From contig NC_047018.1 of NCBI RefSeq assembly GCF_902652985.1, forward strand, positions 36,270,001 to 36,334,000: a stretch of DNA of 64,000 nucleotides, read 5' to 3'. Of this stretch, positions 1,201 to 49,602 are shown piece after piece; within the stretch, counting starts at the first letter, position 1; each line of letters begins with the position of its first letter. Origin of the DNA: Pecten maximus (lineage: Eukaryota). A program made the position numbers and the translations under genes. The notes beneath the pieces are model-generated. The model saw only the letters and a list, made by a program, of their open reading frames with translations. It searched no databases and had not been told where the DNA came from.

Positions 1201-4200
1201 ACACAGACACTTTCTACACCAATAACCCGGTACACACAGATCCACAAACACTTTTTACACCAATAACCCGGTACACAGATCCACAGACACTTTCTATACC
1301 AATAACCCGGTACACAGATCCACAGACACTTTCTATACCAATAACCCGGTACACAGATCCACACAGACACTTTCTATACCAATAACCCGGTACACAGATC
1401 CACAGACACTCTCTATACCAATAACCCGGTACACAGATCCACAGAGACACTTTCTATACCAATAACCCGGTACACAGATCCACAGAGACACTTTCTATAC
1501 CAATAACCCGGTACACAGATCCACAGACACTTTCTACACCAATAACCCGGTACACAGATCCAGACACTTTCTACACCAATTACCCGGTACACAGATCTAC
1601 AGACACTTTCTATACCAATAACCCGGTACACAGATCCACAGTGACACTTTCTACACCAATAACCCGGTACACAGATCCACAGAGACACTTTCTATACCAA
1701 TAACCCGGTACACAGATCCACAGAGACACTTTCTACACCAATAACCCGGTACACAGATCCACACAGACACTTTCTACACCAATAACCCGGTACACAGATC
1801 CACACAGACACTTTCTACACCAATAACCCGGTACACAGATCCACAGAGACACTTTCTATACCAATAACCCGGTACACAGATCCACAGAGACACTTTCTAT
1901 ACCAATAACCCGGTACACAGATCCACAGAGACACTTTCTACACCAATAACCCGGTACACAGATCTACAGAGACACTTTCTACACCAATAACCCGGTACAC
2001 AGATCGACAGAGACACTTTATATACCAATAACCCGGTACACAGATCCACAGAGACACTTTCTACACCAATAACCCGGTACACAAATCTACAGAGACACTT
2101 TCTACACCAATAACCCGGTACACAGATCCACAGAGACACTTTCTATACCAATAACCCGGTACACAGATCCAGGCACTTTCTATACCAATAACCCGGTACA
2201 CAGATCCACAGAGACACTTTCTACACCAATAACCCGGTACACAGATCCACAGAGACACTTTCTACACCAATAACCCGGTACACACTGATCTACAGAGACA
2301 CTTTCTATACCAATAACCCGGTACACAGATCCACAGAGACACTTTCTACACCAATAACCCGGTACACAGATCCACAGAGACACTTTCTACACCAATAACC
2401 CGGTACACAGATCCACAGAGACACTTTCTACACCAATAACCCGGTACACAGATCCACAGAGACACTTTCTATACTAATAACCCGGTACACAGATCCACAG
2501 AGACACTTTCTACACCAATAACCCGGTACACACAGATCTACAGAGACACTTTCTATACCAATAACCCGGTACACAGATCCACAGAGACACTTTATACACC
2601 AATAACCCCGTACACAGATCCACAGAGACACTTTCTACACCAATAACCTGGTACACAGATCCACAGAGACACTTTCTACACCAATAACCCGGTACACAGA
2701 TCCACAGTGACACTTTCTACACCAATAACCCGGTACACAGATCCACAGACACTTTCTACACCAATAACCCGGTACACAGATCCACAGAGACACTTTCTAC
2801 ACCAATAACCCGGTACACACAGATCCACAGAGACACTTTATATACCAATAACCCGGTACACAGATCCACAGAGACACTTTCTACACCAATAACCCGGTAC
2901 ACAAATCTACAGAGACACTTTCTACACCAATAACCCGGTACACAGATCCACAGAGACACTTTCTACACCAATAACCCGGTACACAGATCCAGACACTTTC
3001 TATACCAATAACCCGGTACACAGATCCACAGAGACACTTTCTACACCAATAACCCGGTACACAGATCCACAGAGACACTTTCTACACCAATAACCCGGTA
3101 CACACAGATCTACAGAGACACTTTCTATACCAATAACCCGGTACACAGATCCACAGAGACACTTTCTACACCAATAACCCGGTACACAGATCCACAGAGA
3201 CACTTTCTACACCAATAACCCGGTACACAGATCCACAGAGACACTTTCTACACCAATAACCCGGTACACACAGATCTACAGAGACACTTTCTACACCAAT
3301 AACCCGGTACACAGATCCACAGAGACACTTTCTACACCAATAACCCGGTACACAGATCCACAGAGACACTTTCTACACCAATAACCCGGTACACAGATCC
3401 ACAGACACTTTCTATACCAATAACCCGGTACACATATCCACAGAGACACTTTCTACACCAATAACCCGGTACACAGATCCACAGACACTTTCTATACCGT
3501 ACACAGATCCACAGAGACACTTTCTACACCAATAACCCGGTACACAGATCCACAGACACTTTCTACACCAATAACCCGGTACACAGATCCACAGAGACAC
3601 TTTCTACACCAATAACCCGGTACACAGATCCACAGAGACACTTTCTACACCAATAACCCGGTACACAGATCCACAGACACTTTCTATACCAATAACCCGG
3701 TACACAGATCCACAGACACTTTCTACACCAATAACCCGGTACACAGATCCACAGAGACACTTTCTACACCAATAACCCGGTACACAGATCCACAGGGACA
3801 CTTTCTATACCAATAACCCGGTACACAGATCCACAGGGACACTTTCTACACCAATAACCCGGTACACAGATCCACTAGACACTTTCTACACCAATAACCC
3901 GGTACACAGATCCACAGGGACACTTTCTACACCAATAACCCGGTACACAGATCTACAGAGATACTTTCTACACCAATAACCCGGTACACAGATCCACTAG
4001 ACACTTTCTACACCAATAACCCGGTACACAGATCCACAGGGACACTTTCTACACCAATAACCCGGTACACAGATCTACAGAGACACTTTCTACACCAATA
4101 ACCCGGTACACAGATCCACTAGACACTTTCTACACCAATAACCCGGTACACAGATCCACTAGACACTTTCTACACCAATAACCCGGTACACAGATCCACA

Positions 4201-6672
4201 GAGACACTTTCTACACCAATAACCCGGTACACAGATCTACAGAGACACTTTCTACACCAATAACCCGGTACACAGATCCAAAGAGACACTTTCTATACCA
4301 ATAACCCGGTACACAGATCTACAGAGACACTTTCTACACCAATAACCCGGTACACAGACCCACAGAGACACTTTCTACACCAATAACCCGGTACACAGAT
4401 CCACTAGACACTTTCTACACCAATAACCCGGTACACAGATCCACAGGGACACTTTCTACACCAATAACCCGGTACACAGATCTACAGAGACACTTTCTAC
4501 ACCAATAACCCGGTACACAGATCCACAGAGACACTTTCTACACCAATTAACCGGTACACAGATCCACAGAGACACTTTCTACACCAATAACCCGGTACAC
4601 AGATCCACAGGGACACTTTCTACACCAATAACCCGGTACACAGATCCACAGGGACACTTTCTACACCAATAACCCGGTACACAGATCTACAGAGACACTT
4701 TCTACACCAATAACCCGGTACACAGATCCACAGAGACACTTTCTACACCAATAACCCGGTACACACAGATCCACAGAGACACTTTCTATACCAATAACCC
4801 GGTACACAGATCCACAGGGACACTTTCTACACCAATAACCCGGTACACACAGATCTACAGAGACACTTTCTACACCAATAACCCGGTACACAGATCCACA
4901 GGGACACTTTCTACACCAATAACCCGGTACACAGATCCACAGAGACACTTTCTACACCAATAACCCGGTACACACAGATCTACAGAGACACTTTCTACAC
5001 CAATAACCCGGTACACAGATCCACTAGACACTTTCTACACCAATAACCCGGTACACAGATCCACAGACACTTTCTATACCAATAACCCGGTACACAGATC
5101 CACAGGGACACTTTCTACACCAATAACCCGGTACACACAGATCTACAGAGACACTTTTTATACCAATAACCCGGTACACAGATCCACAGAGACACTTTCT
5201 ACACCAATAACCCGGTACACAGATCCACAGGGACACTTTCTACACCAATAACCCGGTACACAGATCTACAGAGACACTTTCTACACCAATAACCCGGTAC
5301 ACAGACCCACAGAGACACTTTCTACACCAATAACCCGGTACACAGATCCACAGAGACACTTTCTACACCAATAACCCGGTACACAGATCTACAGAGACAC
5401 TTTCTACACCAATAACCCGGTACACAGATCCAAAGAGACACTTTCTATACCAATAACCCGGTACACAGATCTACAGAGACACTTTCTACACCAATAACCC
5501 GGTACACAGACCCACAGAGACACTTTCTACACCAATAACCCGGTACACAGATCCACTAGACACTTTCTACACCAATAACCCGGTACACAGATCCACAGGG
5601 ACACTTTCTACACCAATAACCCGGTACACAGATCTACAGAGACACTTTCTACACCAATAACCCGGTACACAGATCCACAGAGACACTTTCTACACCAATT
5701 AACCGGTACACAGATCCACAGAGACACTTTCTACACCAATAACCCGGTACACAGATCCACAGGGACACTTTCTACACCAATAACCCGGTACACAGATCCA
5801 CAGGGACACTTTCTACACCAATAACCCGGTACACAGATCTACAGAGACACTTTCTACACCAATAACCCGGTACACAGATCCACAGAGACACTTTCTACAC
5901 CAATAACCCGGTACACACAGATCCACAGAGACACTTTCTATACCAATAACCCGGTACACAGATCCACAGGGACACTTTCTACACCAATAACCCGGTACAC
6001 ACAGATCTACAGAGACACTTTCTACACCAATAACCCGGTACACAGATCCACAGGGACACTTTCTACACCAATAACCCGGTACACAGATCCACAGAGACAC
6101 TTTCTACACCAATAACCCGGTACACACAGATCTACAGAGACACTTTCTACACCAATAACCCGGTACACAGATCCACTAGACACTTTCTACACCAATAACC
6201 CGGTACACAGATCCACAGACACTTTCTATACCAATAACCCGGTACACAGATCCACAGGGACACTTTCTACACCAATAACCCGGTACACACAGATCTACAG
6301 AGACACTTTTTATACCAATAACCCGGTACACAGATCCACAGAGACACTTTCTACACCAATAACCCGGTACACAGATCCACAGGGACACTTTCTACACCAA
6401 TAACCCGGTACACAGATCTACAGAGACACTTTCTACACCAATAACCCGGTACACAGACCCACAGAGACACTTTCTACACCAATAACCCGGTACACAGACC
6501 CACAGAGACACTTTCTACACCAATAACCCGGTACACAGATCCACTAGACACTTTCTATACCAATAACCCGGTACACAGATCCACTAGACACTTTCTACAC
6601 CAATAACCCGGTACACAGATCCACTAGACACTTTCTACACCAATAACCCGGTACACAGATCCACTAGACACA
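1201..6672. repeat. Minisatellite A, ~41-bp unit CACTTTCTACACCAATAACCCGGTACACAGATCCACAGAGA (37-43 bp variants)
   Basis: About 130 directly visible tandem copies; source of the many WICVPGYWCRKC pseudo-ORFs. Confidence 0.98.
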
Positions 6673-9102
6673 CGTGGGGCAAAGTCCACATTCGAAACTA
6701 CCACCCCCTCTTAACTCCCGTCACATGCTTAAAATTATCTTCAAATTGGAAAGTTTAACTCAAGACTTCGTCTGTGTTAACGACAGGATGGTTAGAAAAA
6801 GGACGTCTTGACCCCAAATTGTCTGTTAAAAATGCTAATTAACAAACATAAATTTGAACGCAATATTAAAAGAATCAGATCGAAGTCAATGTAATTCTTC
6901 GACGAGTAGATCGTCGAGTATTTAATTTAAAATTACATAATACGGATAGTGGTTCCTTCAGCTCAGACTAATTGTCGGCCAACCAATCTAACACAATGTA
7001 GTAGTTGTTACGTCAAACCTCGGGGCGGTTTTCAGGTATCATGTCTCACTATTTTATATCAATATATCCAGCAACTTTGATAATTCTATACCTGACCGAT
7101 TCCGAGTCTGTTGGACCCCAGAGCATTATCTGTCAGAGAAAGATTACACGTGCTTATACCACTTAATCAATAATTCATGGAAATCAATGAAAAATACTCA
7201 CATTTTTTTTCGTCCGCTTTCCTTTCCCGATTAAAAATGTTCTCCGTATTGATTAATTGTAATTTTTGTTATATTTAATGAACTGTGTTTCTCTATACAT
7301 ATCCCGATAATATACAGGTGTGTCTCGATACAGTCTAGTGGCTAGTTTCCAATAAACATCACTGTTGAGTCAAATGTTCTACTCCTTAAAGGCGTACGTT
7401 CTGAATTCCGTCCTGAACGAAGACGTACTTGTTCTGGGGAGGGTGGTTGTTGTTCTAACCTAACTATAGGTCAGTGTTTGTTGACAATTCACACAGGTAT
7501 TCGGTATTTAAAGATAAGACAGTAGAATATCGAGAACATCTTCATTGTTTGTAGTTTAAATCTGCACAACAATTGTCGTGTCAGGTTCCCCAGGGGTCAC
7601 GCCATTGTTCTTCAATCAAATTGACTCGTAAAACTAGCTATCCGTTTGTAAACAAGTCTGTATGTACTTTACAAAATACAGAATGACCGATTAGAAGATA
7701 GCATGGGGGTTTATATTTTCACAACCACTATAGAATTCAGTTTGTCTATTAGAAAAATGTTGGGTTTTTTTTTATAAATATAATCAACAACCCGTGATTT
7801 TTTGCAAGTTTGATCTCTTTGCAACCTGTCGTCACATTACAAATATGGAATTTTAACAGTTGCGCCAAAACGTAATTGGAGATAGATTTTGGCATAAAAT
7901 CTAAGTTTGACTACAGTCCAACAAGCTAAATACTAAACGCCATGCCGGTAATTGTATTCCTATAAATACGGCTCTTTTCTGAAAGCCGTGAAAAAATAAA
8001 ATAAAAAGAAGGATAAATGAAATATACAGGGGCTAATAGATTAAAAGCTCATTGTAATGGCGCGTTGTCACATTGGCTCATAATTTTTTGTCGCGTTGTC
8101 GCACTGTCAAAGCGAGATGGCCGAAACTAGTGACCATCACTATGCCTGTTTGTTCCTTCGAAACAAGCGGCGGTAAAGTGACAAGGAATTAAATGCTCTA
8201 TTGGCATTAGGCATGACCATAACACAACATTAATTCATATATAATGGCTACCAGGTGAAATGACATTGAAAAATAATCAACTTCATTCTTGCACATCGTC
8301 TCTTGTTTCACATAACACAAGACTACATAAGAAGCAAACATTTCGCTGATGTAAAGATGGATAACTTCAAAAACCGGGATAAAATGTAGAAAAATGATAA
8401 TTGTATACCTACTGCCAGTGTGGTTACGAATAGTTTGACAGTCCTATTCAAATATTTATAAATTTTGTATCGCATTTGTCTCATAGTCGTATATTGAGAC
8501 CAATCGCTGAGCTGCCATATTTGTTATATAAGAGCCTCACACAACTCATATAGATGTGGGACATGGGTATCACTGTTTGCACATTTTGTCTGTGTTTGCT
8601 TTAAATCTCTTTGTAGAGGATTATTCAAATAAAACGTCACCATTAATGACCGATATAGGTTTGTGAGACTTCCATAAATTATGACGAAACGATTCTTTCA
8701 AGATAGATTTAAATTCACATCCATAATTTATATAACTCGTTCGTACCGGAGTATCGCATTAAGTTGTTAACTTGTCATATGTATAGGCGAGGTGTCCTCC
8801 ATAGGTAATACTATAGGTAACGGACACTTAAACAAGCGATTGTCGCCTAGATCTTTATCCAATGTTTTTCTCACTTGTAAAATAACTATGTACATTTATA
8901 TGATCCTCATCTGAATCAGAGACGTGTATATCTGATATACTGTTATTCTGTTAATGAAATCTGCATTATTTGGAGGAAATAAAGAGAATGATAATGATAA
9001 TGACGGCTACTAGCTATACATTTCCCAACTTGACACCTGTACATATAATTATCTAACATAAGGTATTGAATTGAACTAGATGAGTTATTACGATACATGA
9101 AC

Positions 9103-10235
9103 AGTGTCTCATGAGTCAGGCGATTTTATTACAATATATCCGTAGTGTCCCACGAGTCTGGCGATTTCGTTACAATATATCCTTAGTGTCTCATGAGACA
9201 GGCTATTTTATTACAATATATCCGTAGTGTCCCACGAGTCTGGCGATTTCGTTACAATATATCCTTAGTGTCTCATGAGTCAGGCGATTTTATTACAATA
9301 TATCCGTAGTGTCCCACGAGTCAGGCGATTTTATTACAATATATCCGTAGTGTCCCACGAGTCTGGCGATTTCGTTACAATATATCCTTAGTGTCTCATG
9401 AGTCAGACGATTTTATTACAATATATCCGTAGTGTCCCACGAGTCAGGCGATTTTATTACAATATATCCGTAGTGTCTCATGAGTCAGGTGATTTCGTTA
9501 CAATATATCCTTAGTGTCTCATGAGACAGGCTATTTTATTACAATATATCCGTAGTGTCTCACGAGTCAGGCGATTTCGTTACAATATATCCGTAGTGTC
9601 TCACGAGTCAGGCGATTTTATTACAATGGATCCGTAGTGTCTCATGAGTCAGGCGATTTTATTACAATATATCCATAGTGTCTCACGAGTCAGGCGATTT
9701 CATTACAATATATCCGTAGTGTCTCACGAGTCAGGCTATTTTATTACAATATATCCGTAGTGTCTCATGAGTCAGGCGATTTTATTACAATATATCCATA
9801 GTGTCTCACGAGTCAGGCGATTTCGTTACAATATATCCGTAGTGTCTCATGAGTCAGGCGATTTTATTACAATGGATCCGTAATGTCTCACGAGTCAGGT
9901 GATTTCGTTACAATATATCCGTAGTGTCTCATGAGTCAGACGATTTTATTACAATATATCCGTAGTGTCTCATGTGTCTGGCGATATTATTACAATATAT
10001 CTGTAGTGTCTCATGAGTCAGGCGATTTTATTACAATATATCCGTAGTGTCTCACGAGTCAAGCGATTTAGTTACAATATATCCGTAGTTTGCCATGAGT
10101 CAGGCGATTTTATTACAATATATCCGTAGTGTCTCACGAGTCAGGTGATTTTATTACAATATCTCCGTAGTTTGACATGAGTCAGGTGATTTAGTTACAA
10201 TATATCCGTAGTTTGCCATGAGTCAGGCGATTTTA
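9103..10235. repeat. Minisatellite B, 41-bp unit GTGTCTCATGAGTCAGGCGATTTTATTACAATATATCCGTA
   Basis: About 27 tandem copies. Confidence 0.97.
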
Positions 10236-11584
10236 ATTCGATACAGTTATGACATCCCGTGAGTTACTTTAAACACTGTTTATACATAGTGTCTCCATCA
10301 TTAAGATCCTCGCATAGCCCACTGTAAACTAGTGTATTGTTACGATTCAGTCAGTTTTGGTACAGTTTATGGTATGTGTATTGTTTCCTTAACCAGTGAG
10401 TTTTATGATAATTTATCAAGTGTTTGGTTACAGAAGTCAAGTAGGGTGTGTACTCTCTTGAATCTGCGATTACTTATTCATATGAGTCCCAAATTTACAC
10501 TTGATTAGCAAATTTTGTTTTAATATTCAAATAAGGTAAACAAGCACACTGCGTGTCTACCGACATGTTGAAACCTGATGTGGCCAGGCTGGGATATCGA
10601 TACAGTATATTAATAATATCCCTAACTCAGCACCCCGGTGTTACGATCACGTGACGGACCCCGTTACACCCGCCTCACTGTTTAGTTATCATAAACTTTA
10701 ACACTACACATTAAAAACCATTTAAATTTTATTACATGTGTTTACTGAACAATGGACTTGATAAAGTAACCGCTGGATATGTATATACAGTCAGCAGCCT
10801 TATAAACCACCTGTTAATGTATATAATGTATTTTGTGAAATATTTCAATTTTCGCTTTCGTTTTTGCGTGATGCTCCTCACCCCCTGTTCAAATATGCAT
10901 AGTTAGGGCTGAGATCATAAAACATTATTTTAATTAAATAAATCCTTTATGATAAAATATCAATTTCGAAGTTTTTTGTGATTTCTGTATGTCATTATAC
11001 ACAACTCCTTTAGAGCTCTATAATCACAGTGTGAAACTCTTTAGTTTACTAGTATATATGTAGAATTATATAGAACTTAGTTATTAACATTACAGTTAGG
11101 GTATCGTGAAACCCCATACATCTATATGACAAAGTGAAATCTCCTTTATAACTCTTAATAAGAAGACGATTTCAATTACTTATTTACAGTTCGGATTCGT
11201 TTGAAAAAACTCATAAATTCACAGTCACAAATGGTATCGTGAAAATGATCCTGTCCGTGGATGGACACATCCCAGTATCCATAACGGTACTGCATCCACA
11301 TTAATTTTACTGATTTTAGAACTTTGCCGCTTGTAAACAAATTCAAACATTTTATTATTATTATTTTTATAAATTCTATACAAAAGATAATTAAAACTAG
11401 CTGTCGTTAAGATATCTACGTGGTAGGGTTTGTAGGGGGTCACATTAATGGGGCGTGGACGATACAGGTACATAGCCAGGAAATTATCTAGTGGTATTAT
11501 GTTTTTCTTTCATTACTGGTCATCCATTTTGTGTAGGCTGACCTATCGTCGATAAATAACGGTGCAAAACAAGCAAAGTACGCG

Positions 11585-12826
11585 TACAATGGTAAATGAC
11601 CGTCCTGTGTTGTCGTCCTGTACAATGGTAAAGGACCGTCCTGTGTTGTCGTGCTGTACAATGGTAAAGGACTGTCCTGTGTTGTCGTGCTGTACAATGG
11701 TAAAGGACCGTCTTGTGTTGTCGTGCTGTACAATGGTAAAGGACCGTCCTGTGTTGTCGTCCTGTACAATGGTAAAGGACCGTCCTGTGTTGTCCTGTAC
11801 AATGGTAAAGGACCGTCCTGAGTTGTCGTCCTGTACAATGGTAAAGGACCGCCCTGTGTTGTCGTCCTGTACAATGGTAAAGGACCGCCCTGTGTTGTCG
11901 TCCTGTACAATGGTAAAGGACCGTCCTGTGTTGTCGTCCTATACAATGGTAAAGGACCGTCCTGTGTTGTCGGTCTGTACAATGGTAAAGGACCATCCTG
12001 TGTTGTCGCCCTGTACAATGGTAAAGGACCGTCCTGTGTTGTCGTCCTGTACAATGGTAAAGGACCGTCCTGTGTTGTCGTCCTGTACAATGGTAAAGGA
12101 CCGTCCTGTGTTGTCGTCCTATACAATGGTAAAGGACCGTCCTGTGTTGTCGTCCTGTACAATGGTAAAGGACCGTCCTGTGTTGTCGTCCTGTACAATG
12201 GTAAAGTACCGTCCTGTGTTGTCGTGCTGTACAATGGTAAAGGACCGTCCTGTGTTGTCGTCCTGTACAATGGTAAAGGACCGTCTTGTGTTGTCCTGTA
12301 CAATGGTAAAGGACCGTCCTGTGTTGTCGGTCTGTACAATGGTAAAGGACCACCCTGTGTTGTCGTCCTGTACAATGGTAAAGTACCGTCCTGTGTTGTC
12401 GTCCTGTACAATAGTAAAGGACCGTCCTGTGTTGTCGGTCTGTACAATGGTAAAGGACCGTCCTGTGGTGTCGTCCTGTACAATGGTAACGGACCGTCCT
12501 GTGTTGCGTCCTGTACAACGATAAAGGACCGTCCTGTGTTGTCGGTCTGTACAATGGTAAAGGACCGTCCTGTGTTGTCGTCCTGTACAATGGTAAAGGA
12601 CCGTCCTGTGTTGCGTCCTGTACAATGATAAAGGACCGTCCTGTGTTGTCGGTCTGTACAATGGTAAAGGACCGTCCTGTGTTGTCGTCCTGTACAATGG
12701 TAAAGGACCGTCCTGTGTTGCGTCCTGTACAATGGTAAATGACCGTCCTGTGTTGTCGGTCTGTACAATGGTAAAGGACCGTCCTGTGTTGTCGTCCTGT
12801 ACAATGGTAAAGGACCGTCCTGTGTT
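11585..12826. repeat. Minisatellite C, 36-bp unit TGTACAATGGTAAAGGACCGTCCTGTGTTGTCGTCC
   Basis: About 34 copies; explains the 12-aa periodic ORFs on both strands. Confidence 0.97.
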
Positions 12827-14594
12827 AGCTTAGTCTTGTCCTTGTACAAAACAGTTTACTCAAGTTCGTCTAGATAGCAAACACTATGTCTCATGTGGTT
12901 TTTTTTCATTGAGGTAGCCACCAGCTACTACAATGAGACCCCGTGTCAATATGTTCCCGGTTCTTCACACGGCTTATATATGCGATAAAGAAAATGTATA
13001 CAATAATGATATATGAGGGTAGATATTTTCTGTCAGTGTTTGTTAATTCGCCGTCTATCAAAGTTTGACAGATATATGTGTTATATAGGACCATAGGGAT
13101 ATGTGTTAAATGTAATCTCATTAAAATTGGATGATGAAATTCTAATTTTAATTTGGTGTTATATGAGACCGAGAGGTGGTAATGTTCTGTGGAACGTGGA
13201 GGTGGGGGCTGATATGTTTTAAATAGTTACTGTGACTGTTCAGCCATCCTGGAGTATATAGATACAAACTACGTCATGACAACACTTCATTTCTCGACAA
13301 AATAAAAACAAATCTACATTGAAGTTACATCATGGGATATCCCTAACAGAACCTTTTTATTTCGGACGTAATTACAATTTTGTGGACGCCGCTTTCTTAA
13401 TGTGACACCATTGCAATGTCTAACAGCACCTGTTTGTAAGGATAAAGGAATTCCGTGACTGATTTTGATTAATTTTACCTACAAATCTGTGTCTAGCAAT
13501 GTTCTATATGGAATCGAGACTAATGTGTATCATACAAGTCCGTGGTGCTGTGAGAACAGGTGCCCGGTGGGTACACCGTTAATAACCCCGTGATGTTATT
13601 TGTCACAAAATACTTCTCAATAAAAATAAATAAATAAATAGCTGAAAAGAAATTATGTTAATCATTAAACATGTACTATGTGGAATCATTATACGTCGAA
13701 TGGGATTCAATCCTTAATTATAATGGAACTCTTCAAAACACGGAGGAAGAAAAGGTATGAGACGACGGTACAGCTAACTTAAGGGGATTTGTCACACCGT
13801 CGGAGTACGGTTTTATACAAATACTAATCGATAGGCAATCAGTATCCATCATGCTTAGTGCTAAATGTACATATGAATGGAATGCACGGCACAGCTTATA
13901 CCTCAGTATAATGCAACAGGAACTCTTCTTTGTGGAGGAACAAACAGCCTGGTTGATCCACGTGAGCCTTTAATTGGACTGAAGAATGATCACGTCTAAG
14001 CCGAAAGTTATAAAAGTTCACACGATAATATTTGTATCATAGAAAATATCTTCAGTAGATCACAGGGACGGTATCTTTAATCATATTTAATATGACTAGA
14101 TGTAGAAACTGGTACCGTGTAATTCCGTGTCGCTAAGTAAATAATGTTTGAGTATGATTGGTAGACCGCTGTGATCAAACGCCTACACGATGTACATGTA
14201 CATTCGGGTACAGTGTATATTATAAAGTATTCACTTGTTAAACAAATCAAATTACACACGAGTGTAAAACATGTGGTTTTTACAGTTCCTTACATAAGTA
14301 GAGATATGATAATTTGATCAAGTCGATGTGTACTTCGATATCATAATGCGTACACAAACTATAAATAGACGTATAAGTTGATTAAATCAACACCCGGTGA
14401 AATTGGCATCTCGTAATTGGTCAAAAATTTAACTTACATATGTATTAAGTTCTTTCTAACGTCATTGTGAGTATAGCTGTATAAAACGATACCAATACCA
14501 ATCTTATAATTCAGAAAACTTCATCAATCACAAAAAGTTCGATATTATAACTGTATGGCACTAAATATTTTATAGGGTAACACTAAATTGTTGC

Positions 14595-15090
14595 TGTTAC
14601 AGGCCCCTGTCCGGGTCCGTGTATACTGATTTGACATACACTGTTCAGTATTATAAATGAGACTCTTTACGGGCCCCTGTGGTCGGGGTTATAACGTGTT
14701 GTTACACTCTTTATTATTGTAAATCATTGATGTTACATGCCCCTGTGATCTGCGTAATGACTTTGTGACGCACTATTTAGTTTTATAAATATCATGTTAC
14801 AGGCCCCTGTGATCTGCGTAATGACTTTGTGATACACTATTTAGTTTTATAAATACATGTTACAGGCCCCTGTGATCTGCGTAATGACTTTGTGATACAC
14901 TATTTAGTTTTATAAATATCATGTTACAGGTCCCTGTGATTTGTTCAATAACTTGATGATGCACTGTTTAGTATTATAAATAACACATGTTATAGGTCCC
15001 TGTGATCCTGGTAATGAGTTCATATGACTTCAAATTACACTATTTAGTAATATAAACAACATCTCATCTGTTACAGGCCCCTGTGGTCTG
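14595..15090. repeat. Degenerate minisatellite D, ~62-68-bp unit containing TGTTACAGGCCCCTGTG
   Basis: About 8 diverged copies. Confidence 0.88.
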
Positions 15091-15504
15091 TGTAATAGCC
15101 ACATGTTTACACAATATCGATGTGGAAATAGCACAATCCATCACCACAATGTACTTTCACTGGCGATAATGTATTGACTGCACATAAACGGAGACCGCTT
15201 TAAACAAATCAATGTCCCAGATGATGAAAAGAGTAAGGTATATAAAATAAAATAATTAAATCTACAGAAACAATTAAATACGTTTGTATATACTGGGTTT
15301 GTGCCAAATCATTGAAACAATGAAAAAATAAAACAAATACGGATTACATCAACGTCGCAATCTCCGGGAGATATGTCGAAATGTTGATACAGCTATATAC
15401 ATATACAAACAAATTATGTTTTATGAGCAAACAATCCACATATGTACTGGGCCCCAAAACATCCCCGGACTAAATCCCTGATACAGATTTGTTATAGAAG
15501 GCGT

Positions 15505-17162
15505 GGTTTATACCACAGGGACCTGAACGTTATAGACCGCGGAATGGTTTATACCACAGGGACCTGAACGTTATAGACCGCGGAATGGTTTATACCACAG
15601 GGACCTGAACATTATAGACCGCGGAATGGTTTATACCACAGGGACCTGAACATTATAGACCGCGGAATGGTTTATACCACAGGGACCTGACAGTTATAGA
15701 CCACGGAATGGTTTATACCACAGGGACCAGAAAGGTATAGACCACGGAATGGTTTATACCACAGGGACCTGACAGTTATAGACCACGGAATGGTTTATAC
15801 CACAGGGACCTGAACGTTATAGACCGCGGAATGGTTTATACCACAGGGACCTGAACGTTATAGACCGCGGAATGGTTTATACCACAGGGACCTGAAAGTT
15901 ATAGACCGCGGAATGGTTTATACCTCAGGGACCTGAACATTATAGACCGCGGAATGGTTTATACCACAGGGACCTGAACATTATAGACCACGGAATGGTT
16001 TATACCACAGGGACCTGAACATTATAGACCACGGAATGGTTTATACCACAGGGACCTGAACATTATAGACCACGGAATGGTTTATACCACAGGGACCTGA
16101 CAGTTATAGACCGCGGAATGGTTTATACCACACGGACCTGAAAGTTATAGACCGCGGAATGGTTTATACCACAGGGACCTGAACGTTATAGACCGCGGAA
16201 CGGTTTATACCACAGGGACCTGAACATTATAGACCGCGGAATGGTTTATACCACAGGGACCTGAACGTTATAGACCGCGGAATGGTTTATACCACAGGGA
16301 CCTGAAAGTTATAGACCGCGGAATGGTTTATACCTCAGGGACCTGAACATTATAGACCGCGGAATGGTTTATACCACAGGGACCTGAAAATTATAGACCG
16401 CGGAATGGTTTATACCACAGGGACCTGAACGTTATAGACAGCGGAATGGTTTATACCACAGGGACCTGAACATTATAGACCGCGGAATGGTTTATACCAC
16501 AGGGACTTTACAGTTATAGACCGCGGAATGGTTTATACCACAGGGACCTGACAGTTATAGACCACGGAATGGTTTATACCACAGGGACCTGAACGTTATA
16601 GACCGCGGAATGGTTTATACCACAGGGACCTGACAGTTATAGACCACGGAATGGTTTATACCAAAGGGACCTGAACGTTATAGACCGCGGAATGGTTTAT
16701 ACCACAGGGACCAGAAAGTTATAGACCACGGAATGGTTTATACCAAAGGGACCTGAACGTTATAGACCGCGGAATGGTTTATACCACAGGGACCAGAAAG
16801 TTATAGACCGCGGAATGGTTTATACCACAGGGACCTGACAGTTATAGACCGCGGAATGGTTTATACCACAGGGACCTGAACATTATAGACCGCGGAATGG
16901 TTTATACCACAGGGGCCAGAAAGTTATAGACCGCGGAATGGTTTATACCACAGGGACCTGAAAGTTATAGACCGCGGAATGGTTTATACCACAGGGACCT
17001 GACAGTTATAGACCGCGGAATGGTTTATACCACAGGGATCTGAACATTATAGACCGCGGAATGGTTTATACCACAGGGACCTGAAAGTTATAGACCGCGG
17101 AATGGTTTATACCACAGGGACCTGAACATTATAGACCGCGGAATGGTTTATACCACAGGGAC
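15505..17162. repeat. Minisatellite E, 41-bp unit GGTTTATACCACAGGGACCTGAACGTTATAGACCGCGGAAT
   Basis: About 40 copies; internal inverted repeat TATAGACC/GGTTTATA. Confidence 0.98.
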
Positions 17163-18752
17163 ATACTATTTGTAATAGATGGCATGGTTGGACTTTCCTG
17201 TAGATTGCCATGGTTATATGACATACGTTGTCTTTGTGCTTTGGTTTCCTTGAGTACTGGAAACGGTTTTATGTCGACCCCCCCCCCCCCCCCCCCCCCC
17301 GATTAACGTTGGGTACTACTTTTCCCCTTCCTGTGATGACAATAGCGACACACACATGTTTGCTGGGTTTATTGCCCCGTGAACAGCCAATGTCCTTGTC
17401 CATGTAGTAGCTGGTGACTACCGCACTAAACAATACACTGAAGGTCCGTCGCATTCCAACTGTATATGTGCATAGAGCAATCAGGGTAAAGTGCCTTTCA
17501 TGGCACAACCACGACAGTACAGAACGGTCCGTTTCTCAGCTTCCTGAGAAACACAAACCAACATGGGTCGGGAGCGTTGGACCTCGGATCTTCACCACAC
17601 GTTATCGCGGTCCCCTTACCACGTGCTAATCTAAACCTGAAGAATTCTAACACTTCTCTCACTTCACTTAAGTAACCACCATGTCCCTGTGGGTTACACT
17701 GCTCTAGACTGTTGTCTTTGTATATTATACATGTTACAACGTATATCAATAAGTACAGGGATCCGTGTCAAGTCCCTGTGTCAAATCACCTATAAAATAC
17801 TGTATAAATCAAAACTGATTGACTGATCAAATACGAGCACTGCAAAGAGTACATGGAAACTTACCTACCTGGTATACAGTTATCCCTCTGGAATGCCAGG
17901 TATTCCCAGCTACGGTTATCCTTTAGTGGGACATATATGGTGGAATGACGGATATAGCTCCTCTGTTGTGAGGAACAACTCGGCAATAAAGCCGATCATT
18001 GGCGGTATTGGTATCGATCGGTTGGTGAGGCGGACCGTGACTCTATGCCACCTACATGCATATTTCTGTATTAAGAAGTTCACTGACTTTTTAATCAGTA
18101 AAATATTTACCAGTATAGTTTAATATATGTTTTACAAGCCAAAACACCAAATAAGACCTGGCTACTATTAGGACTAGTGTTCGATTCTGGCCATGTAAAT
18201 CCCTTCTATACTCTTGGCCAGATATCAATATATCTTGCCTGTTTTCATCAAAATCATTTTATAATGTAATAATTTCACGGGTATGTTCATTGATGTGTAA
18301 CACTAACCCCCGTGGTTTCTGAAGAAGTGTAGATTCAGATTCAGATTCTGTATTTCTTTGTGTTTTTCAACACATCAGGGAGAGTCCGACATTACAAAAC
18401 AATAAGACCTATTACTGTTTCACCGCAAATGCTATAAGAAGAATACAAGCGACTGTTCTAACGATATCTGTAGTATTTGGAGGAAAATCCGATGGAGTTA
18501 CTGTCTGGTATGTAGAAGTATGATATCTAGTCTGTGGATCCCACATTATTTCTTCTGTAGATGATTATTTAATTGATTTAGAATCAGAACAGATGTGTCG
18601 ATTCCCCGATATTTTCTTTAGCTCTTAGATATAGCAGTTCTTAAATATAGTCTGTCTTTGCTTTATCCTTTGCTGATTCCCAATAATCTCTTGAGGAGAT
18701 ATTAACTTCCCGCTCTTGACGATGATTTAAGCTATAGTCTATGGATTTCCCG

Positions 18753-20720: not shown

Positions 20721-21344
20721 GTGGATTTTCAGCCTTTTGTGGAGAGGCGAGGTCTGACCTTTGCCATTGTATAGATAAGATCTGGTCAGTCAATTTCTTT
20801 TTATTTCTGTAGATCTAAGAGATATATAATAAGATGGACAGAAAGAGAGAACTGTAAATGTACTTGTTAACTTAACATAAGGATGGTGTCGTTTAATATA
20901 AAACAGATTAGTAGATTAAATATTAACCGTTAACAGCTTTCAATTTAGATATTTAGTGACCGTTCAAGCTGCAATAACAGCCTTTATATATAACCACAGA
21001 CTAAGCTATAAAACGTTAATCCAGCAACAAAACCAACGGTCCTTTAAACAGAATCTTATAAAAAAATCAATGCTTTTCAAAAGTGTCCATCACAAGAACC
21101 AACGGTCTGTGATAATATGCCACAAAGCCAATGTCTACAGTAAAATTCTCGGTCAATTCCGTCAAGGCCCGGAAAAAACGTCTTGACCAGATTCATTGAG
21201 ATGTTGCGATTGAGTTCACAAGTGCATGTGGCAATGTTTCCAGCGAAATACCAGAGAGAAATTCACCTGTCTTAGAAAATTAGGCGTTCCCTTTACTATT
21301 TATAGTACATGTATACTACAAAAGCCCACTCCTCCAGAATAATT

Positions 21345-22795
21345 TTGTTACATGTCCCTGTGGTCGAGTCGCTCTCCTCCCCCAGAAAACATTGTTGCAT
21401 GCCCCTGTGATCGAGTCGCTCTCCTCCCCCAGAAACATGGTTATATGTCACTGTGATCGGGTTGCTCTCCTCCCCCAGAAACATTGTTGCATGTCCCTGT
21501 GGTCGAGTCGCTCTCCTCCCCCAGAAACATTGTTGCATGTCCCTGTGATCGAGTCGCTCTCCTCCCCAAGAAACATGGTTATATGTCCCTGTGATCGAGT
21601 CGCTCTCCTCCCCCAGAAACATTGTTACATGTCACTGTGATCGGGTCGCTCTCCTCCCCCAGAAACATTGTTGCATGTCCCTGTGGTCGAGTCGCTCTCC
21701 TCCCCCAGAAACATTGTTGCATGTCCCTGTGATCGAGTCGCTCTCCTCCCCCAGAACATTGTTATATGCCCTGTGATCGAGTCGCTCTCCTCCCCAAGAA
21801 ACATTGTTACATGTCCCTGTGATCGAGTCGCTCTCCTCCCCAAGAAACATTGTTACACGCCCCTATGATTGAGTCGCCTCCTCCCCAAGAAACATTGTTA
21901 CACTCCCCTGTGATCGAGTCGCTCTCCTCCCCCAGAAACATTGTTGCATGTCCCTGTGATCGAGTCGCTCTCCTCCCCAAGAAACATTGTTACACTCCCC
22001 TGTGATCGAGTCGCTCTCCTCCCCAGAAACACTGTTACATGCCCCTGTGATTGAGTCGCTCTCCTCTCCCAGAAACATTGTTACATGCCCATATGGTCGA
22101 GTCGCTCTCCTCCCCCAGAAACATTGTTGCATGTCCCTGTGATCGAGTCGCTCTCCTCCCTAAGAAACATTGTTACATGCCCCTGTGATCGAGTCGCTCT
22201 CCTCCCCCAGAACATTGTTATATGCCCTGTGATTGAGTCGCTCTCCTCCCCAAGAAACATTGTTACATGCCCCTATGATCGAGTCGCTCTCCTCCCCCAG
22301 AACATTGTTATATGCCCTGTGATCGAGTCGCTCTCCTCCCCAAGAAACATTGTTACATGCCCCTGTGATCGAGTCGCTCTCCTCCCCAAGAAACACGGTT
22401 ATATGTCACTGTGATCGGGTCGCTCTCCTCCCCCAGAAACATTGTTACATGCCCCTGTGATCGAGTCGCTCTCCTCCCCAAGAAACATTGTTACATGCCC
22501 CTGTGATCGAGTCGCGCTCCTCCCCAAGAAACATGGTTATATGTCACTGTGATCGGGTCGCTCTCCTCCCCCAGAAACATTGTTACATGCCCCTGTGATC
22601 GAGTCGCTCTCCTCCCCAGAAACATTGTTACATGCCCCTGTGATCGAGTCGCGCTCCTCCCCAAGAAACACTGTTACATACCCCTGTGATCGAGTCGCTC
22701 TCCTCCCCCAGAAACATTGTTACATGCCCCTATGATCGAGTCGCTCTCCTCCCCCAGAAACATTGTTACATGCCCCTGTGATCGAGTCGCTCTCC
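21345..22795. repeat. Minisatellite G, ~46-bp unit GTCCCTGTGATCGAGTCGCTCTCCTCCCCCAGAAACATTGTTACAT
   Basis: About 31 copies. Confidence 0.97.
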
Positions 22796-22964
22796 ACACA
22801 AACTAAAGGTCGACCAGAAATTGTTTCATAGTTTCTATACATCCACTCTCACATGAAAAAACCCCCAAACGATTTCAGACAATAATCCATTATACACACG
22901 TTACTTTATCGCATAGCACGTGCAAGTCCCTCCCTAGTGTAATTTCCTTCTCTATCCGAGTACT

Positions 22965-23155
22965 GGGACGGTACGAGGACGGTACAAGGACGGTACGAGG
23001 ACGGTAAGGATACGAAGACGGTACGGGGACGGTATGGGGACGGTACGGAGACGACGGGTAAGGTACGGGGACGGCATGAGGACGGTATGGGGACGGTACT
23101 AGGACGGTACGAGGACGGTATGGGGACGGTATGGGGACGGTACGGGGACGGTATA
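22965..23155. repeat. G-rich 11-bp tandem repeat GGACGGTAYGR
   Basis: About 17 imperfect copies. Confidence 0.9.
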
Positions 23156-23520
23156 GACCCTACAGAGACAAGGCCTCTGCGGTGACCAGGAGACCACAGA
23201 GTGGAATATACCTGTTCGAACGTAACAATCTAAGGGTGATTTAAACCCCAAACTTTAATATCAGAAATTAAATAATACGAGTAGGATCCATCTCTGTCAC
23301 CACCAACAATGATGGCTGGGGGAACATTGGAAGTTTTTTCTTTGTTGTCTGTTCAATTAATAACCGTGACTGTTGACTGTTACGTATAACATGTACCGTT
23401 TTTCTTAAATTTCAATAGGCCATCAGCGCTTGTATTTCTTGGCATTTAAACAATTTTATGTAAGTAGAAATTATATTGGAATTCCGGGAATATTGAAACT
23501 AATGCATCGCTTTTTTTGTC

Positions 23521-23628
23521 AGATGGCACAGTAGTAACACGCTTGTCTTTCACATAGGCGGCCGAGGTTCGATTCCCAGACCGGACGTTAAAAGGTATCG
23601 AGTCACCTACCCGACCACGCGGGTTTTT
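23521..23628 (+). mobile_element. tRNA-derived SINE head, 3'-truncated
   Basis: A box TGGCACAGTAG and B box GGTTCGATTCC, then ACCCGACCACGCGGGTTTT where a V-domain would start. I could not fold a full cloverleaf. Confidence 0.7.
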
Positions 23629-24634
23629 GAAATTGTAAAATAAATAGTTAATATCATATAACAACAATTCTGTGATATAGTACATACTTGGTGTTATCAA
23701 CACGAACGGTAACTACAGAAACCTTCTTTGTATTTAAAACACTCACAAAAAAAAAAACTCACAAAAAGCCTAAACGAAGGTTTATGTGATTAAACGATAA
23801 TTGAAGACAATGGCATTGAAAATATCATGTGTCCCTGAAATGAATCTACTGTTGCAAATTTTGCCCTAACCTTGACCCAAGCACTATACAACTTATAGAG
23901 TAGTGTCCAGAGCTCTGAAAACACTGAGTACGTAAAAGGTTCTATAAATAGTGAATATAAAAAGTGACTACCTTGATATTGACCTTGACATTGACCTTGT
24001 CCCTGACCTTGTCCTTGACATTGATTAAACGTAATTCAGAATTGACGTTACTAGGCGTGATACGTCGGATATGCTTTTACTGGATTTTTTTTAGAATGGA
24101 GGAAGGGGGCACCTAATTTCTTTTTATTATCACTGACTTTAAAACAGAATATGTGTAAGGTCTATCTGTTCACATACCGGATGTTACCATGGTAAAGGTC
24201 AAGGCAGATAGTTAACCCCAATTGTTCGTGCAGTGCCGGTACAATTGGAGTAGGTGAACAAACACAGACATACCTGCCGAACCCACCACCTCATCGTCAG
24301 GGGAAACACTTCAAATGAATATCAGTGTTGTAACAGTTTGTGTCAACAACGATAACAAAACAGTTGTTTACTCTTCATAACAGACATTCCACACACAGTT
24401 TAGTTTCTCTTTTATGGCAATTTCAATTGGATCTGTATGACATGAATATCGAATATGATATGAACTGTTCATGAGTAAGTAGTCAATGGACATAAACTGT
24501 GGGTTATAGGCTACACGTGTAAACGTTACACAATATGTACAATATAGGTAACACGACTTACATACACAAACCACAATAGTGTGAGGACTGGTTACCAGGT
24601 TAGTTTCTCATAATAAAGACTGGCGTCTTGATGA

Positions 24635-24698
24635 TTGGCTTGGTTTAGTAATGGTTAACGTCCTATCAACAGCTATGGTCAATTTTAAAAGAACGACA
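24635..24698 (-). mobile_element. Degenerate SINE tail fragment
   Basis: Reverse complement of the same tail (TTAACGTCCTATCAACAGCTATGGTCA). Confidence 0.6.
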
Positions 24699-26048
24699 GA
24701 GAATGACAAGCAAAACATTACATGTACACTGTCTGAAAATGTTTCGTTTTAATCTCTACAATTACAAAACAAATTCTTATTGTGCACGAGTTGTATTCTA
24801 GCCTTTTTCCCCTCGAGTTGATTTCTACAGATTAGAAACAACTTTCTTTCATACCATTTCCAATAATACTATTAATAAATATCTATATTAACTGTGTCGG
24901 TTTAAATCCCAACCTGTAACCTAGTGCATGTCAAACACTTTTAATCATGTAAGCGAAACGAAATATCAGAACAAAGTCTCGAGATTTCAATTAAAGGTAT
25001 GACGTGATGAAAATCACGTGCATTTAAGACAGGTGTACATTTGTAAGTATAGGCGTTACCCTAGTCTATAGCTAAACACACACGAAAGAAATTATTTCAA
25101 GTAGCTGCTAGGCGGCTAAAAACACCAGGTGTTTGTTACCAGAATCTAATACCTGTTTTTTTAATACTAATTTTGAAAACTAAATAAAAAAGCGACCTCT
25201 TATGTGAAAACATTTTGGAGTCAACAGAGGTACAGATGATTACAAACAAACAAGTCATATTACCAGACCATAGTGTTATATAACACCATCAAGGTAAAAT
25301 ATTTGCAAGTTATGTTATTGATACGAGTTCTTTATTTGTTTGAAGTATACTGTGTCTGTATGTCATGCCTTTGTTAGGATTGACATCGAGAACGAGACAA
25401 AATAATCTTCAATTTCTGAAAAAAATAACATTTTGGACTACTTTTCTAGTGTCCTATATATGATGTTTAACACTGGATTGGAACTCGTGCTCTCAGACCA
25501 TTGTCTAGTGTCAGTGATGACAGGTTTCGCATAAAAAAATACATTATTTTTTTGTTCACATACTTCACAATAAACTCAGGTTTTAAATTACAGAGACCAT
25601 GAAGTAACTAACCCAAGAGTTAAGCGATTGAATTTATCTGACGTTAATTCGTCTGGCTATTTAACCAATTTGTATCGACCTATGTAATTTATTGTTCAAC
25701 AAAATCATATCGCTAGATCTGACAATACGGTTAGTTATAACCACTAGGGAAACGTATTCCTTACACTGTTCCACAGGGATTTGGTAAAAATTCTCTATCA
25801 AATTAGATACGTTAATACCCACATACAGAGAGCGGACCAAGATCATGTGTCACATCCCTGTGCCCCGGTACAAAACCTTAGTTACCCCGTGAACACAGAA
25901 GAAACACTGTTTACAAGTAAGATACACGAAACCTTATTATTACAGGTCTATATATCATCCAGGAGTTTTATCGAGGAGTAAAATATAAAACGGGTACACA
26001 TTAGCAATGAGCAGCTAGAAATAAACGAGTAGGGAACATGTACAACCC

Positions 26049-26106
26049 TAGTCCGAGTTTCCTCTGGCCCTGACACCATGTCTAGGACCAGAGGAAACTC
26101 GGGCTA
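26049..26106. mobile_element. Palindromic TAGCCCGAG mini-element copy
   Basis: Same arms; right arm internally shortened. Confidence 0.78.
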
Positions 26107-26398
26107 ATGCATCCCCAGTTCCGAGTATACTGCCAGAGAACTCCAGATGCTCGTGTTCAAAATTGGTACTACCAACATGATATTTTTCCTGTTGTAGTGA
26201 TTATATTCAATATACTGTGACACAATTCAGACTTCGTACTGTCAAAATGGAGGTAATCTGTCCGACTTTGACGCCACCAACACTGATGTTCTAATGTGAT
26301 TCCACCATTAATGAAGCCATGTCCAACCACTTGATGCCATCAAAGTTGATGCCCAATAATATGTGTATAATGCAGGTAAACGATCGTGTTCAACATCC

Positions 26399-27570
26399 GT
26401 GATGTCGCCTTTATATAGTATCTATAAATGGACCGTGGGCCAATCCCCTGTGATGTCGCCTATTATATAGTATCTATAAATGGACCGTGGGCCAATCCCC
26501 TGTGATGTCGCCCATTATATAGTATCTATAAATGGACCGTGGACCAATCCCCTGTGATGTCGCCCATTATATAGTATATATAAATGGACCGTGGGCCAAT
26601 CCCCTGTGATGTCGCCCATTACATAGTATCTATAAATGGACCGTGGGCCAATCCCCTGTGATGTCGCCCATTATATAGTATCTATAAATGGACCGTGGGC
26701 CAATCCCCTGTGATGGCGCCCATTATATAGTATCTATAAATGGACCGTGGGCCAATCCCCTGTAATGTCGCCTATTATATAGTATCTATAAATGGACCGT
26801 GGGCCAATTCCCTGTGATGTCGCCCATTATATAGTATCTATAAATGGACCGTGGGCCAATCCCCTGTGATGTCGTCCATTACATAGTATCTATAAATGGA
26901 CCGTGGGCCAATCCCCTGTGATGTCGCCCATTACATAGTATCTATAAATGGACCGTGGGCCAATCCCCTGTGATGTCGCCCATTACATAGTATCTATAAA
27001 TGGACCGTGGGCCAATCCCCTGTGATGTCGCCCATTACATAGTATCTATAAACGGACCGTGGGCCAATCCCCTGTGATGTCGCCCATTATATAGTATATA
27101 TAAACGGACCGTGGGCCAATCCCCTGTGATGTCGCCCATTATATAGTATCTATAAATGGACCATGGGCCAATCCCCTGTGATGTCGCCTATAAATGGACC
27201 GTGGGCCAATCCCCTGTGATGTCGCCCATTATATAGTATCAAATGGACAGTGGGCCAATCCCCTGTGATGTCTCCCATTATATAGTATCTATAAATGGAC
27301 CGTGGGCCAATCCCCTGTGATGTCGCCCATTATATAGTATCTATAAATGGACCGTGGGCCAATCCCTTGTGATGTCGCCTATAAATGGACCGTGGGCCAA
27401 TCCCCTGTGATGTCGCCCATTATATAGTATCTATAAATGGACCGTGGGCCAATCCCCTGTGATGTCGCCCATTATATAGTATCTATAAATGGACCGTGGG
27501 CCAATCCCCTGTGATGTCGCCCATTATGTAGTATCTATAAATGGACTGTGGACCAATCCCCTGTGATGTT
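26399..27570. repeat. Minisatellite I, 52-bp unit GTGATGTCGCCCATTATATAGTATCTATAAATGGACCGTGGGCCAATCCCCT
   Basis: About 23 copies, two with the same internal deletion. Confidence 0.97.
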
Positions 27571-49513: not shown

Positions 49514-49602
49514 CACAGGGACCTGGCATGAACTTCCAACCCCTGGTACATATAATACATATATATGGACCATGGTTTGAAAACTTGTGCCAAGTCCCTG
49601 TG
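49514..49602. mobile_element. CACAGGGAC-terminated mini-element
   Basis: TIRs CACAGGGACCTGGCA / TGCCAAGTCCCTGTG (14 of 15 match); flanks ACAGAGAG / ACCGAGTAG resemble a decayed TSD. Confidence 0.65.

Follow-up and report, generated by a model that had tools for sequence, protein, structure and literature searches.

P-superfamily transposon ends as components of minisatellite arrays in Pecten maximus

We analyzed a 64,000-nucleotide stretch of the Pecten maximus genome (hereafter the window; NC_047018.1, positions 36,270,001 to 36,334,000), in which minisatellites of different unit lengths had been proposed, from the letters alone, to share a transposon-terminus motif, CACAGRGRC, with dispersed mini-elements. 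The arrays lie where this sequence-only reading had placed them (positions are those of the window):

1199–6673, plus strand: array A, 134 × 41 bp; CACAG(A/G)GAC, without further element homology
11584–12826, minus strand: array C, 35 × 36 bp; CACAGGAC only
14560–15085, minus strand: array D, about 8 diverged units of 63–81 bp
15504–17162, plus strand: array E, 40 × 41 bp; 9–13 bp of element end plus flank-derived sequence
21345–22795, minus strand: array G, about 32 × 46 bp
26399–27569, minus strand: array I, about 23 × 52 bp; opens with CACAGGGGAT, not the exact motif
54731–55609, plus strand: array R, 25 × 35 bp; 25–33 bp resemble a MITE arm, core degenerate

The element-like features of the window are the following:

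513–618, no strand assigned: hairpin MITE, 106 bp; ends 19/25 alike, without recognisable target duplication
14061–14069, plus strand: unpaired element end
17154–17691, no strand assigned: element with 11-bp identical inverted ends; target duplication 6/8 (chance 0.007)
17772–17780, minus strand: second unpaired element end
21217–21362, minus strand: decayed P-type MITE, 146 bp, adjoined by array G; target duplication 6/8
25772–25862, no strand assigned: decayed MITE, 91 bp; ends 16/25 alike, without recognisable target duplication
33204–33282, no strand assigned: hairpin MITE, 79 bp; exact 7-bp target duplication
49514–49602, no strand assigned: hairpin MITE, 89 bp; 75% identical to family member L015, flanks 5/8

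CACAGRGRC occurred 142 times in the window vs 1.25 by shuffle, and nearly all of these matches were copies within four arrays (A, D, E, and G). The motif, noted for all of these arrays (in weaker versions for C and R), was exact in those four; arrays I, C, and R contained no exact copy. In array A, the motif copies comprised 54 CACAGAGAC and 18 CACAGGGAC. All five mini-elements proposed to bear it as a terminal inverted repeat (513–618, 17154–17691, 25772–25862, 33204–33282, and 49514–49602) do have inverted CACAG ends, but an exact target duplication was found only at 33204–33282, and the flanks of the three at 513–618, 25772–25862, and 49514–49602 match at 4–5 of 8 positions. Within 17154–17691, positions 17269–17635 are a high-copy insertion missing from one allele, and the element proper is therefore about 175 bp long.

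Similarity beyond the 9-bp core was scored against 181 isolated element ends, with 200 nulls for each array; this library had been enriched for the D/G family by search, which makes the D and G scores partly circular. Similarity was clear for G (35 bp) and R (25–33 bp), neither of which was reached by any of the 200 nulls, and marginal for I (1/200) and D (17 bp, 3/200), while none was detected beyond the core for E (58/200), C (46/200), and A (122/200). For arrays A and C, both counted as members by the sequence-only reading, nothing extends past a chance-level core, their membership appears unsupported, and the core match of C is likely due to chance.

Two arrays, G and E, lead directly into elements that are complete but decayed. 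In each G unit, 32 bp of element end are joined at a 4-bp GGAG microhomology to 14 bp of upstream flank, of which the 8-bp target duplication is part, and the final unit continues into the 146-bp element at 21217–21362, which had escaped the sequence-only reading and whose target duplication matches at 7/8 in other alleles vs 6/8 in the window. The last unit of array E is the left end of the element at 17154–17691. Contigs of four runs contained no array-free allele at the ends of G and E, although such contigs show presence only. Homology at arrays D, I, and R is weaker or confined to the end. Each D unit opens with 17 bp of the G-family end and includes about 11 bp of flank, whereas array I contains about 8 bp of flank and weakly matches MITE arms. 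The search for partner ends gave none for I, and none with a target duplication for D; the candidate partners at 14061 (for D) and 25772 (for I) were ruled out as target duplications were absent.

CANRG is the consensus start of terminal inverted repeats in the P superfamily. CACAGGGRC is the terminus of P-superfamily transposons and their MITEs, an identity resting on several observations. Inverted CACAGGGRC…GYCCCTGTG pairs numbered 513 vs 3 for the control. Target duplications of 7 or 8 bp accompanied the ends: among 29 elements, 13 had an exact duplication, 2 had one mismatch, 4 had two, and 10 had none. One 8,485-bp element (L063) combined CACAGGGRC-type ends and an exact 7-bp duplication with a PF21787 match above the cut-off. 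Finally, a profile built from 11 transposases matched only the Drosophila P transposase (6p5a) in the PDB, with an E value of 4e-26, while a single transposase frame searched by phmmer matched nothing there. The proposed P-superfamily identity was thereby borne out, as was the expectation of a P transposase with these termini in the genome. Of the transposase loci retrieved, 2 of 20 had borders defined by ends plus duplication, a long perfect TIR was present in L063/L145, and MITE L012 corresponded to the first 73 bp of the 8,485-bp element plus a short end. No THAP domain was matched in the 11 transposase frames or in other frames of this element, all taken without exon assembly, and tblastn of 54 frames revealed no P transposase remnants in the window.

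End-bearing arrays elsewhere took three forms: flank plus end, element arm only inside a duplication bracket, and micro-element plus target duplication. The proposal that each unit is a flank plus an element end held for G, L101, and L221, which adjoin a whole element, but not for L103, L186, L210, L213, and L220, whose units are arm-only, lie inside the element, and lack flank. At the latter, the target duplication lies outside the whole array (exact at L103, L186, and L220, 7/8 at L210). The third form is exemplified by L276, with five copies of 35 bp plus an 8-bp duplication. A 59–61-bp unit recurs at unrelated sites (L141, L186, L213, L214, and L217); its length equals the distance between the terminal and an internal CACA, and arrays of this family are bracketed by one target duplication (L186 exact, L210 7/8, L213 6/8). 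Microhomology was present at unit boundaries of G (4 bp), L101 (5 bp), the 59–61-bp family (4 bp), and L276 (the 8-bp duplication), and absent from the junctions of L096, L099, and L277. Several long arrays containing the 12-mer had degenerate ends and no element (L205, L209, L215, L216, L223, L225, and L229). Ordinary MITEs, 15 of which were inspected, never carried an array at an end, and no single-copy ancestral allele was seen for any array.

Next, we evaluated how common such arrays are and whether the end is favoured. The motif was detected in 4 of 224 unselected arrays (800 kb sampled), i.e., about 2%. Since the other 220 lacked it, P-end arrays do not account for most minisatellites of this genome, contrary to the suggestion of a general mechanism behind its locus-specific minisatellites. 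Enrichment over null expectations, also predicted, was about threefold overall but ranged from none to 25-fold by choice of null. In a 17-mer census, 10 of 23 loci were tandem vs a 15% null (P = 0.001), whereas the 12-mer displayed no excess under a permissive null. In C1 0–22 Mb, 6 of 68 loci were tandem vs 8 expected under the permissive null and 1–2 under a null matched to that count. Motif arrays numbered 8 in 7.9 Mb, compared with 8 arrays of the control word across 43 Mb of C1. The 25-fold figure from the unselected arrays (4 observed vs 0.16) was not accepted at face value because two of the four arrays share one 59–61-bp unit, a third opens with the end of that family, and the permissive null yields P = 0.07. 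Array starts coincided with the terminus at about twice the expected rate: in an automated phase test of 47 arrays, of which 4 were excluded, two for lying at the end of a stretch and two because their first motif lay further than one period in, 18 of 43 began there vs 7.4 expected, and with the 59-bp family left out, 12 of 35 started within 4 bp of the terminus vs 6.2 (P = 0.013). The automated test replaced hand-read phase values (12/30, with degenerate-start arrays dropped).

Taken together, these data point, with moderate confidence, to P ends having been duplicated as 25–65-bp pieces across microhomology at dozens of examined loci and then expanded. An element inserts with a 7–8-bp target duplication, as the data show, after which a 25–65-bp piece that includes the end would be duplicated, likely across 4–8 bp of microhomology; the short-match unit boundaries of G, L101, L276, and the 59–61-bp family may mark this founding event. 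Slippage or unequal exchange, the same process that yields the other minisatellites of the genome, would then likely drive expansion, as in established models. Depending on the piece, the product would be flank plus end beside the element, an element arm repeated within the target-duplication bracket (such copies being apparently able to transpose with their array), or a micro-element plus target duplication. Relative to other DNA, ends are preferred about two- to threefold, probably through events at the end of the element that involve transposase (aberrant transposition, nested insertion, or interrupted gap repair) or else through the hairpin shape of the elements.

Alternatively, most end-bearing arrays may be direct scars of transposase cuts, as the sequence-only reading had suggested, with 17-nt 3′ tails or sister-end joining and the first duplicate made by repair or aberrant transposition. 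Such tails and templated inserts are documented for Drosophila P (PMC2895639), and several observations are consistent with this scenario: the twofold excess of arrays beginning at the terminus relative to controls; the 17+18-nt micro-element repeated in L276; the 27-bp micro-element in L260 and L290, as expected from two 17-nt tails joined over 7 nt; the units of L098 and L277, which contain exactly 17 nt of end; and 35 micro-elements of 22–48 bp vs 2 controls, 9 of them at 24–28 bp. A hand count in which homology stopped by nucleotide 19 also favoured it (8/12 vs 2/13, P = 0.015); however, the scripted test did not reproduce this count (8/12 vs 7/13, P = 0.69). Moreover, 32–54 bp of element are retained in G, L148, L208, L275, and L269, array G adjoins an unexcised element, no micro-element falls at 29–33 bp, where Drosophila-type footprints are common, and contact with an array was seen for only 2 of 15 micro-elements. 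With the nucleotide-17 test negative and a terminus bias of only twofold, we consider seeding by transposase cuts unlikely as the origin of most end-bearing arrays; direct founding of minisatellites by a P-superfamily transposase, through end cuts (17-nt tails, sister-end joining) at hundreds of loci independently, is likewise rather unlikely.

Pure chance uptake, in which any sequence may become a minisatellite, the window is simply unusually rich in MITE ends, and the end has no advantage, appears distinctly improbable. Arrays do make up about a quarter of the neighbouring DNA, dispersed sites are dense in the window (9 in 42 kb vs 13 in 595 kb elsewhere), ACAGG is in any case the most over-represented 5-mer in unselected units, and the 12-mer lacks an excess under the permissive null. 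The share of hits in triplets was also no higher for the motif (17.6%) than for the backwards word (18.9%), a control that partly overlaps the motif, and reached 7.1% and 11.3% for two other control words; the backwards comparison was set aside as an enrichment test, being dominated by large arrays and uninformative given this overlap. Against chance uptake stand the 17-mer census, the phase test without the 59-bp family, and the higher frequency of motif arrays than of control-word arrays. A host protein-binding or recombination core that destabilizes DNA, with elements incidental, would fit the presence of CACAGG in 12 of 224 units vs about 4 expected from non-array density and might apply to A and C, but is very improbable overall and largely refuted for G, L101, L186, L221, and L276, as unit homology reaches 25–60 bp into specific element families and arrays are bracketed by partner ends with target duplications.

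Minisatellite births can seldom be observed, as the sequence from which an array arose is usually not known. Here, many loci retain a record of their state before duplication in the element end, its partner end, and the target duplication; the position of the junction, the microhomology, and the growth of the array can therefore be compared between loci of a single genome. Should the end bias be the work of transposase, new VNTR loci would arise directly from cut-and-paste transposons, and if transposase founds the arrays, a readable series would lead from footprint to dimer to 100-copy array, i.e., sequence-tagged, datable births. If the bias is not transposase-made, the same loci would still allow microhomology-mediated birth to be tested cleanly in a natural setting. 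In both cases, about 2% of sampled arrays are concerned.

Insertion of P hybrid elements produces a single, mostly large duplication with one junction exactly at the transposon end. Bivalve tandem repeats carried by Helitrons or Helentrons have conserved modules around a central array and no 7–8-bp duplication; the 7–8-bp duplications around L186, L220, and L103 point away from this class. Alternative transposition of maize Ac also places the duplication junction exactly at the transposon end, as in L103 and L220, but the duplications described in the accessible text are single and mostly large, and it reports no minisatellite expansion (PMC3744419). Transposon-end-derived tandem repeats are already published: a review describes TIRs and LTRs, in the portions available, as the prevailing sources of TE-derived monomers and suggests as one route the repair of transposition breaks, including NHEJ and TSD microhomology, although those portions include neither a P-superfamily case nor a flank-plus-end series (PMC9659126). 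We found no description of the many-locus P-end pattern in the literature covered, which largely excludes subscription papers, Repbase, and supplements, and a prior description is possible. P-element MITEs of Anopheles gambiae are alike, as far as the open text of that study goes, in being short and non-autonomous, with P ends, 8-bp duplications, unrelated AT-rich centres, and autonomous partners, while the present elements have 7- or 8-bp duplications and gave no THAP match; end-built arrays are not analysed in that text (PMC1562414).

Further parallels are the TIR repeats of Galileo, another P-superfamily element, and the satellite CDSTR177, which, in the available sections of these reports, likewise involve tandem amplification inside the element, with a repeat number that varies from one element copy to another (PMC3573991, PMC13553610). 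Galileo repeats are described there as about 210 bp long and located 264–467 bp inside the TIR, and CDSTR177 as derived from the central region, whereas the units here begin at the terminus or cross into flank, at many independent loci. The 59–61-bp family fits this foldback/Galileo type (an in-element array, one duplication bracket, several loci), but G and E, with flank in their units, do not. Finally, microhomology-mediated tandem duplication, or a Haber–Louis origin, as outlined in the accessible parts of PMC13167724 and PMC6947457, shares the short-match unit boundary followed by expansion and fits G, L101, L276, and the 59–61-bp family; as presented there, however, this model predicts no terminus preference, which in this genome is two- to threefold.

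Tandem arrays cover one third of the window and, in the surrounding 400 kb, roughly a quarter of the sequence, and TRF recovered the arrays where the sequence-only reading had placed them:

1199-6673 (+), array A
11584-12826 (-), array C
14560-15085 (-), array D
15504-17162 (+), array E
21345-22795 (-), array G
26399-27569 (-), array I
54731-55609 (+), array R

The motif said to be common to these arrays, CACAGRGRC, is present in 142 copies, vs 1.25 expected by shuffle. Nearly all copies lie in A, D, E and G, for which the shared core holds; I, C and R contain no exact copy. Beyond the core, we compared the arrays with 181 isolated element ends and 200 nulls, a test that is partly circular for D and G. 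Matches extended over 35 bp in G and 25-33 bp in R, with scores reached by 0/200 nulls in both cases, while I and D were marginal (1/200 and 3/200 nulls) and E, C and A showed no significant similarity to these ends. No partner end with a target duplication was found for D, I, R, A or C. Of the five dispersed mini-elements named in the sequence-only reading, one carries an exact 7-bp target duplication and another a 6/8 match (chance probability of 6/8, 0.007); the remaining three matched at 4-5/8. Dispersed ends are about ten times denser in the window than usual, making it an extreme case.

P-superfamily terminal inverted repeats (TIRs) start with the consensus CANRG. Across the 918-Mb assembly searched, inverted motif pairs 73-103 bp long numbered 513, vs 3 for a backwards control word. 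Among 29 fetched elements, 13 had an exact 7- or 8-bp duplication, 6 had one or two mismatches, and 10 had none. PF21787 matched at 44 places in the genome, and 2 of 20 fetched PF21787 loci were delimited by ends and a duplication. Two families with transposase are as follows:

L063/L145, 8,485-bp element, long TIRs starting CACAGGGGC, exact 7-bp duplication
L058, transposase-locus family, ends starting CACAGGTAC, 8-bp duplication

A MITE at another locus (L012) joins the initial 73 bp of L063 to a short end. A profile built from 11 transposases had Drosophila P transposase as its sole PDB match (E 4e-26); the translated frames scanned gave no match to a THAP domain. Taken together, the inverted pairs, 7/8-bp duplications, PF21787 element and PDB match show that the motif is a P-superfamily end, as had been proposed. 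L063 additionally encodes a PIF1-like helicase, divided between two frames, and a frame with a PHD finger (1900-2553, 6865-8364, 8297-9229, +), all running opposite to the P-type transposase; the literature searched held no relevant account of P elements with PIF1. Another locus, L053, contains a 2.9-kb inverted duplication (2146-8120, 99.7% identity) with two P-type transposase frames.

Arrays G and E each adjoin an element. In minus-strand order, G is arranged as follows:

Flank, then about 32 units (each with 14 bp of flank and 32 bp of end), then a decayed element
21217-21362, read on the minus strand, the decayed 146-bp element

The far flank of this element is identical to the last 8 bp of the G unit at 6/8 positions, or 7/8 with the C found at 21216 in contigs from all four runs. 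Contigs from three of the four runs have C at 21220 and G at 21221, and these allele differences (21220-21221) indicate that each allele retained a different part of CACAGG. The G junction lies on GGAG, common to element and flank. Array E terminates in the left end of element 17154-17691 (target duplication 6/8). One contig fuses 17268 directly to 17636, skipping the sequence between, which points to an element proper of about 175 bp and a later high-copy insertion. Short interspersed high-copy repeats lie at 17348-17590, within this element, and at 23530-23620, 46980-47150 and 61420-61500.

The window also contains genes:

31877-32353 (-), coding-looking frame without Pfam match, divergent from the IF-2B gene
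~32970-46310, IF-2B-family gene, with the 33204 MITE in its first intron
54265-54468 (-), C2H2 zinc-finger gene exons
60315-63020 (+), IHABP4/SERBP1-like gene exons

Two arrays (38419-38640; 40179-43315) start at exon ends/5' splice sites of the IF-2B-family gene, with exon end and donor repeated in a 43-bp unit. A stretch of about 190 bp (39085-39280) is found again at 39790-40010, around a degenerate version of the 40179 array (region 39270-40040); either the DNA was duplicated locally or the repeat is an artefact of assembly.

Elsewhere in the genome, doublets of a 12-mer end word numbered 1,492 and 1,058, vs 19 and 30 for controls. Among 25 such loci fetched, seven long arrays had no element found. 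A search for partner ends preceded by a doubled end returned 9 matches, spread over 8 loci of which 7 are independent. Several architectures were distinguished:

Form 1 (flank + end): L101, three 26-bp units with microhomology of 5 bp, then a whole MITE
Form 1: L221, nine 56-bp units and a whole element, with a 6/8 duplication
Form 2 (element arm only): L103, L220 and L186, exact duplication bracketing the entire array
Form 3: L276, 5 x (35-bp micro-element + its own 8-bp duplication)
Form 3: L260 and L290, 27-bp micro-element inside
Nested insertion: L206, two ends 48 bp apart
59-61-bp unit: L141, L186, L213, L214 and L217, in differing flanks

The different flanks of the 59-61-bp unit, and a length fixed by an internal CACA, suggest that an array-bearing subfamily was transposed whole. 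Two further arrangements were a compound cluster of at least five nested or tandem CACAGG ends (L271-L273, L286-L287; two loci on different contigs) and, at C13:26.84 Mb (L159), two motif-bearing 31-bp arrays (about 96 and 117 copies) that face one another, forming a large inverted pair.

We then asked how far such arrays exceed chance uptake. In 800 kb fetched blind to the motif, CACAGGGRC occurred in 4 of 224 arrays, vs 0.16 expected from 13 dispersed sites (P 0.07 against a permissive null); two of the four have the 59-61-bp unit in common, and another has that family's end. Triplets made up 17.6% of genome-wide motif occurrences, compared to 18.9% for the backwards word, which overlaps the motif; two further control words gave 7.1% and 11.3%. 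On C1 (0-22 Mb), 6 of 68 12-mer loci were tandem, for 1-2 expected under a matched null and 8 under a permissive one. A 17-mer common to D and G had 182 matches, the first 100 of which gave 25 loci, 12 of them tandem; excluding D and G, this was 10/23 vs a 15% null (P 0.001). Arrays started ≤4 bp from the terminus in 18/43 cases vs 7.4 expected, and in 12/35 vs 6.2 with the 59-bp family left out (P 0.013). We take this to be a genuine end bias of modest size, about two- to threefold. In the unselected units (L105-L144, L165-L204; n = 224), ACAGG was the top over-represented 5-mer (41 vs 10.5 shuffled), and CACAGG occurred in 12, with about 4 expected from non-array density.

The sequence-only reading had attributed the arrays to amplification at a transposase-cut terminus. 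Drosophila P leaves 17-nt 3' tails, repaired via microhomology and templated inserts in the events described in PMC2895639, and such cuts could hypothetically seed a subset of arrays: units at L098 and L277 carry exactly 17 nt of end, arrays contain 17+18 and 27-bp micro-elements, and micro-elements number 35 vs 2 in controls. However, a scripted test for a homology break after nt 17 was negative (8/12 vs 7/13, P 0.69), where a hand count had given P 0.015; G and four further arrays contain 32-54 bp of element; micro-elements of 29-33 bp were not found; and array contact was seen for 2/15 micro-elements and 0/15 ordinary MITEs. Nor is the mechanism a general source of minisatellites, as P-end arrays account for about 2% of those sampled. 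Overall, the feature is real and the superfamily correct, and the mechanism was overstated.

For P itself, there is a hybrid-element insertion model. Published systems include P-MITEs that have 8-bp duplications, in an account that mentions TIRs within tandem repeats in passing (PMC1562414), and Galileo is described as having tandem repeats within its TIRs and as the source of a satellite (PMC3573991, PMC13553610). A review states that TIRs often supply monomers and names break repair as a route (PMC9659126). Microhomology-mediated duplication is presented as a general process (PMC13167724), and alternative transposition as yielding duplications that end at a terminus (PMC3744419). The literature searched held no account of minisatellites recurrently built from P ends, and P-end arrays are a variant of transposon-derived tandem repeats that we take as new.
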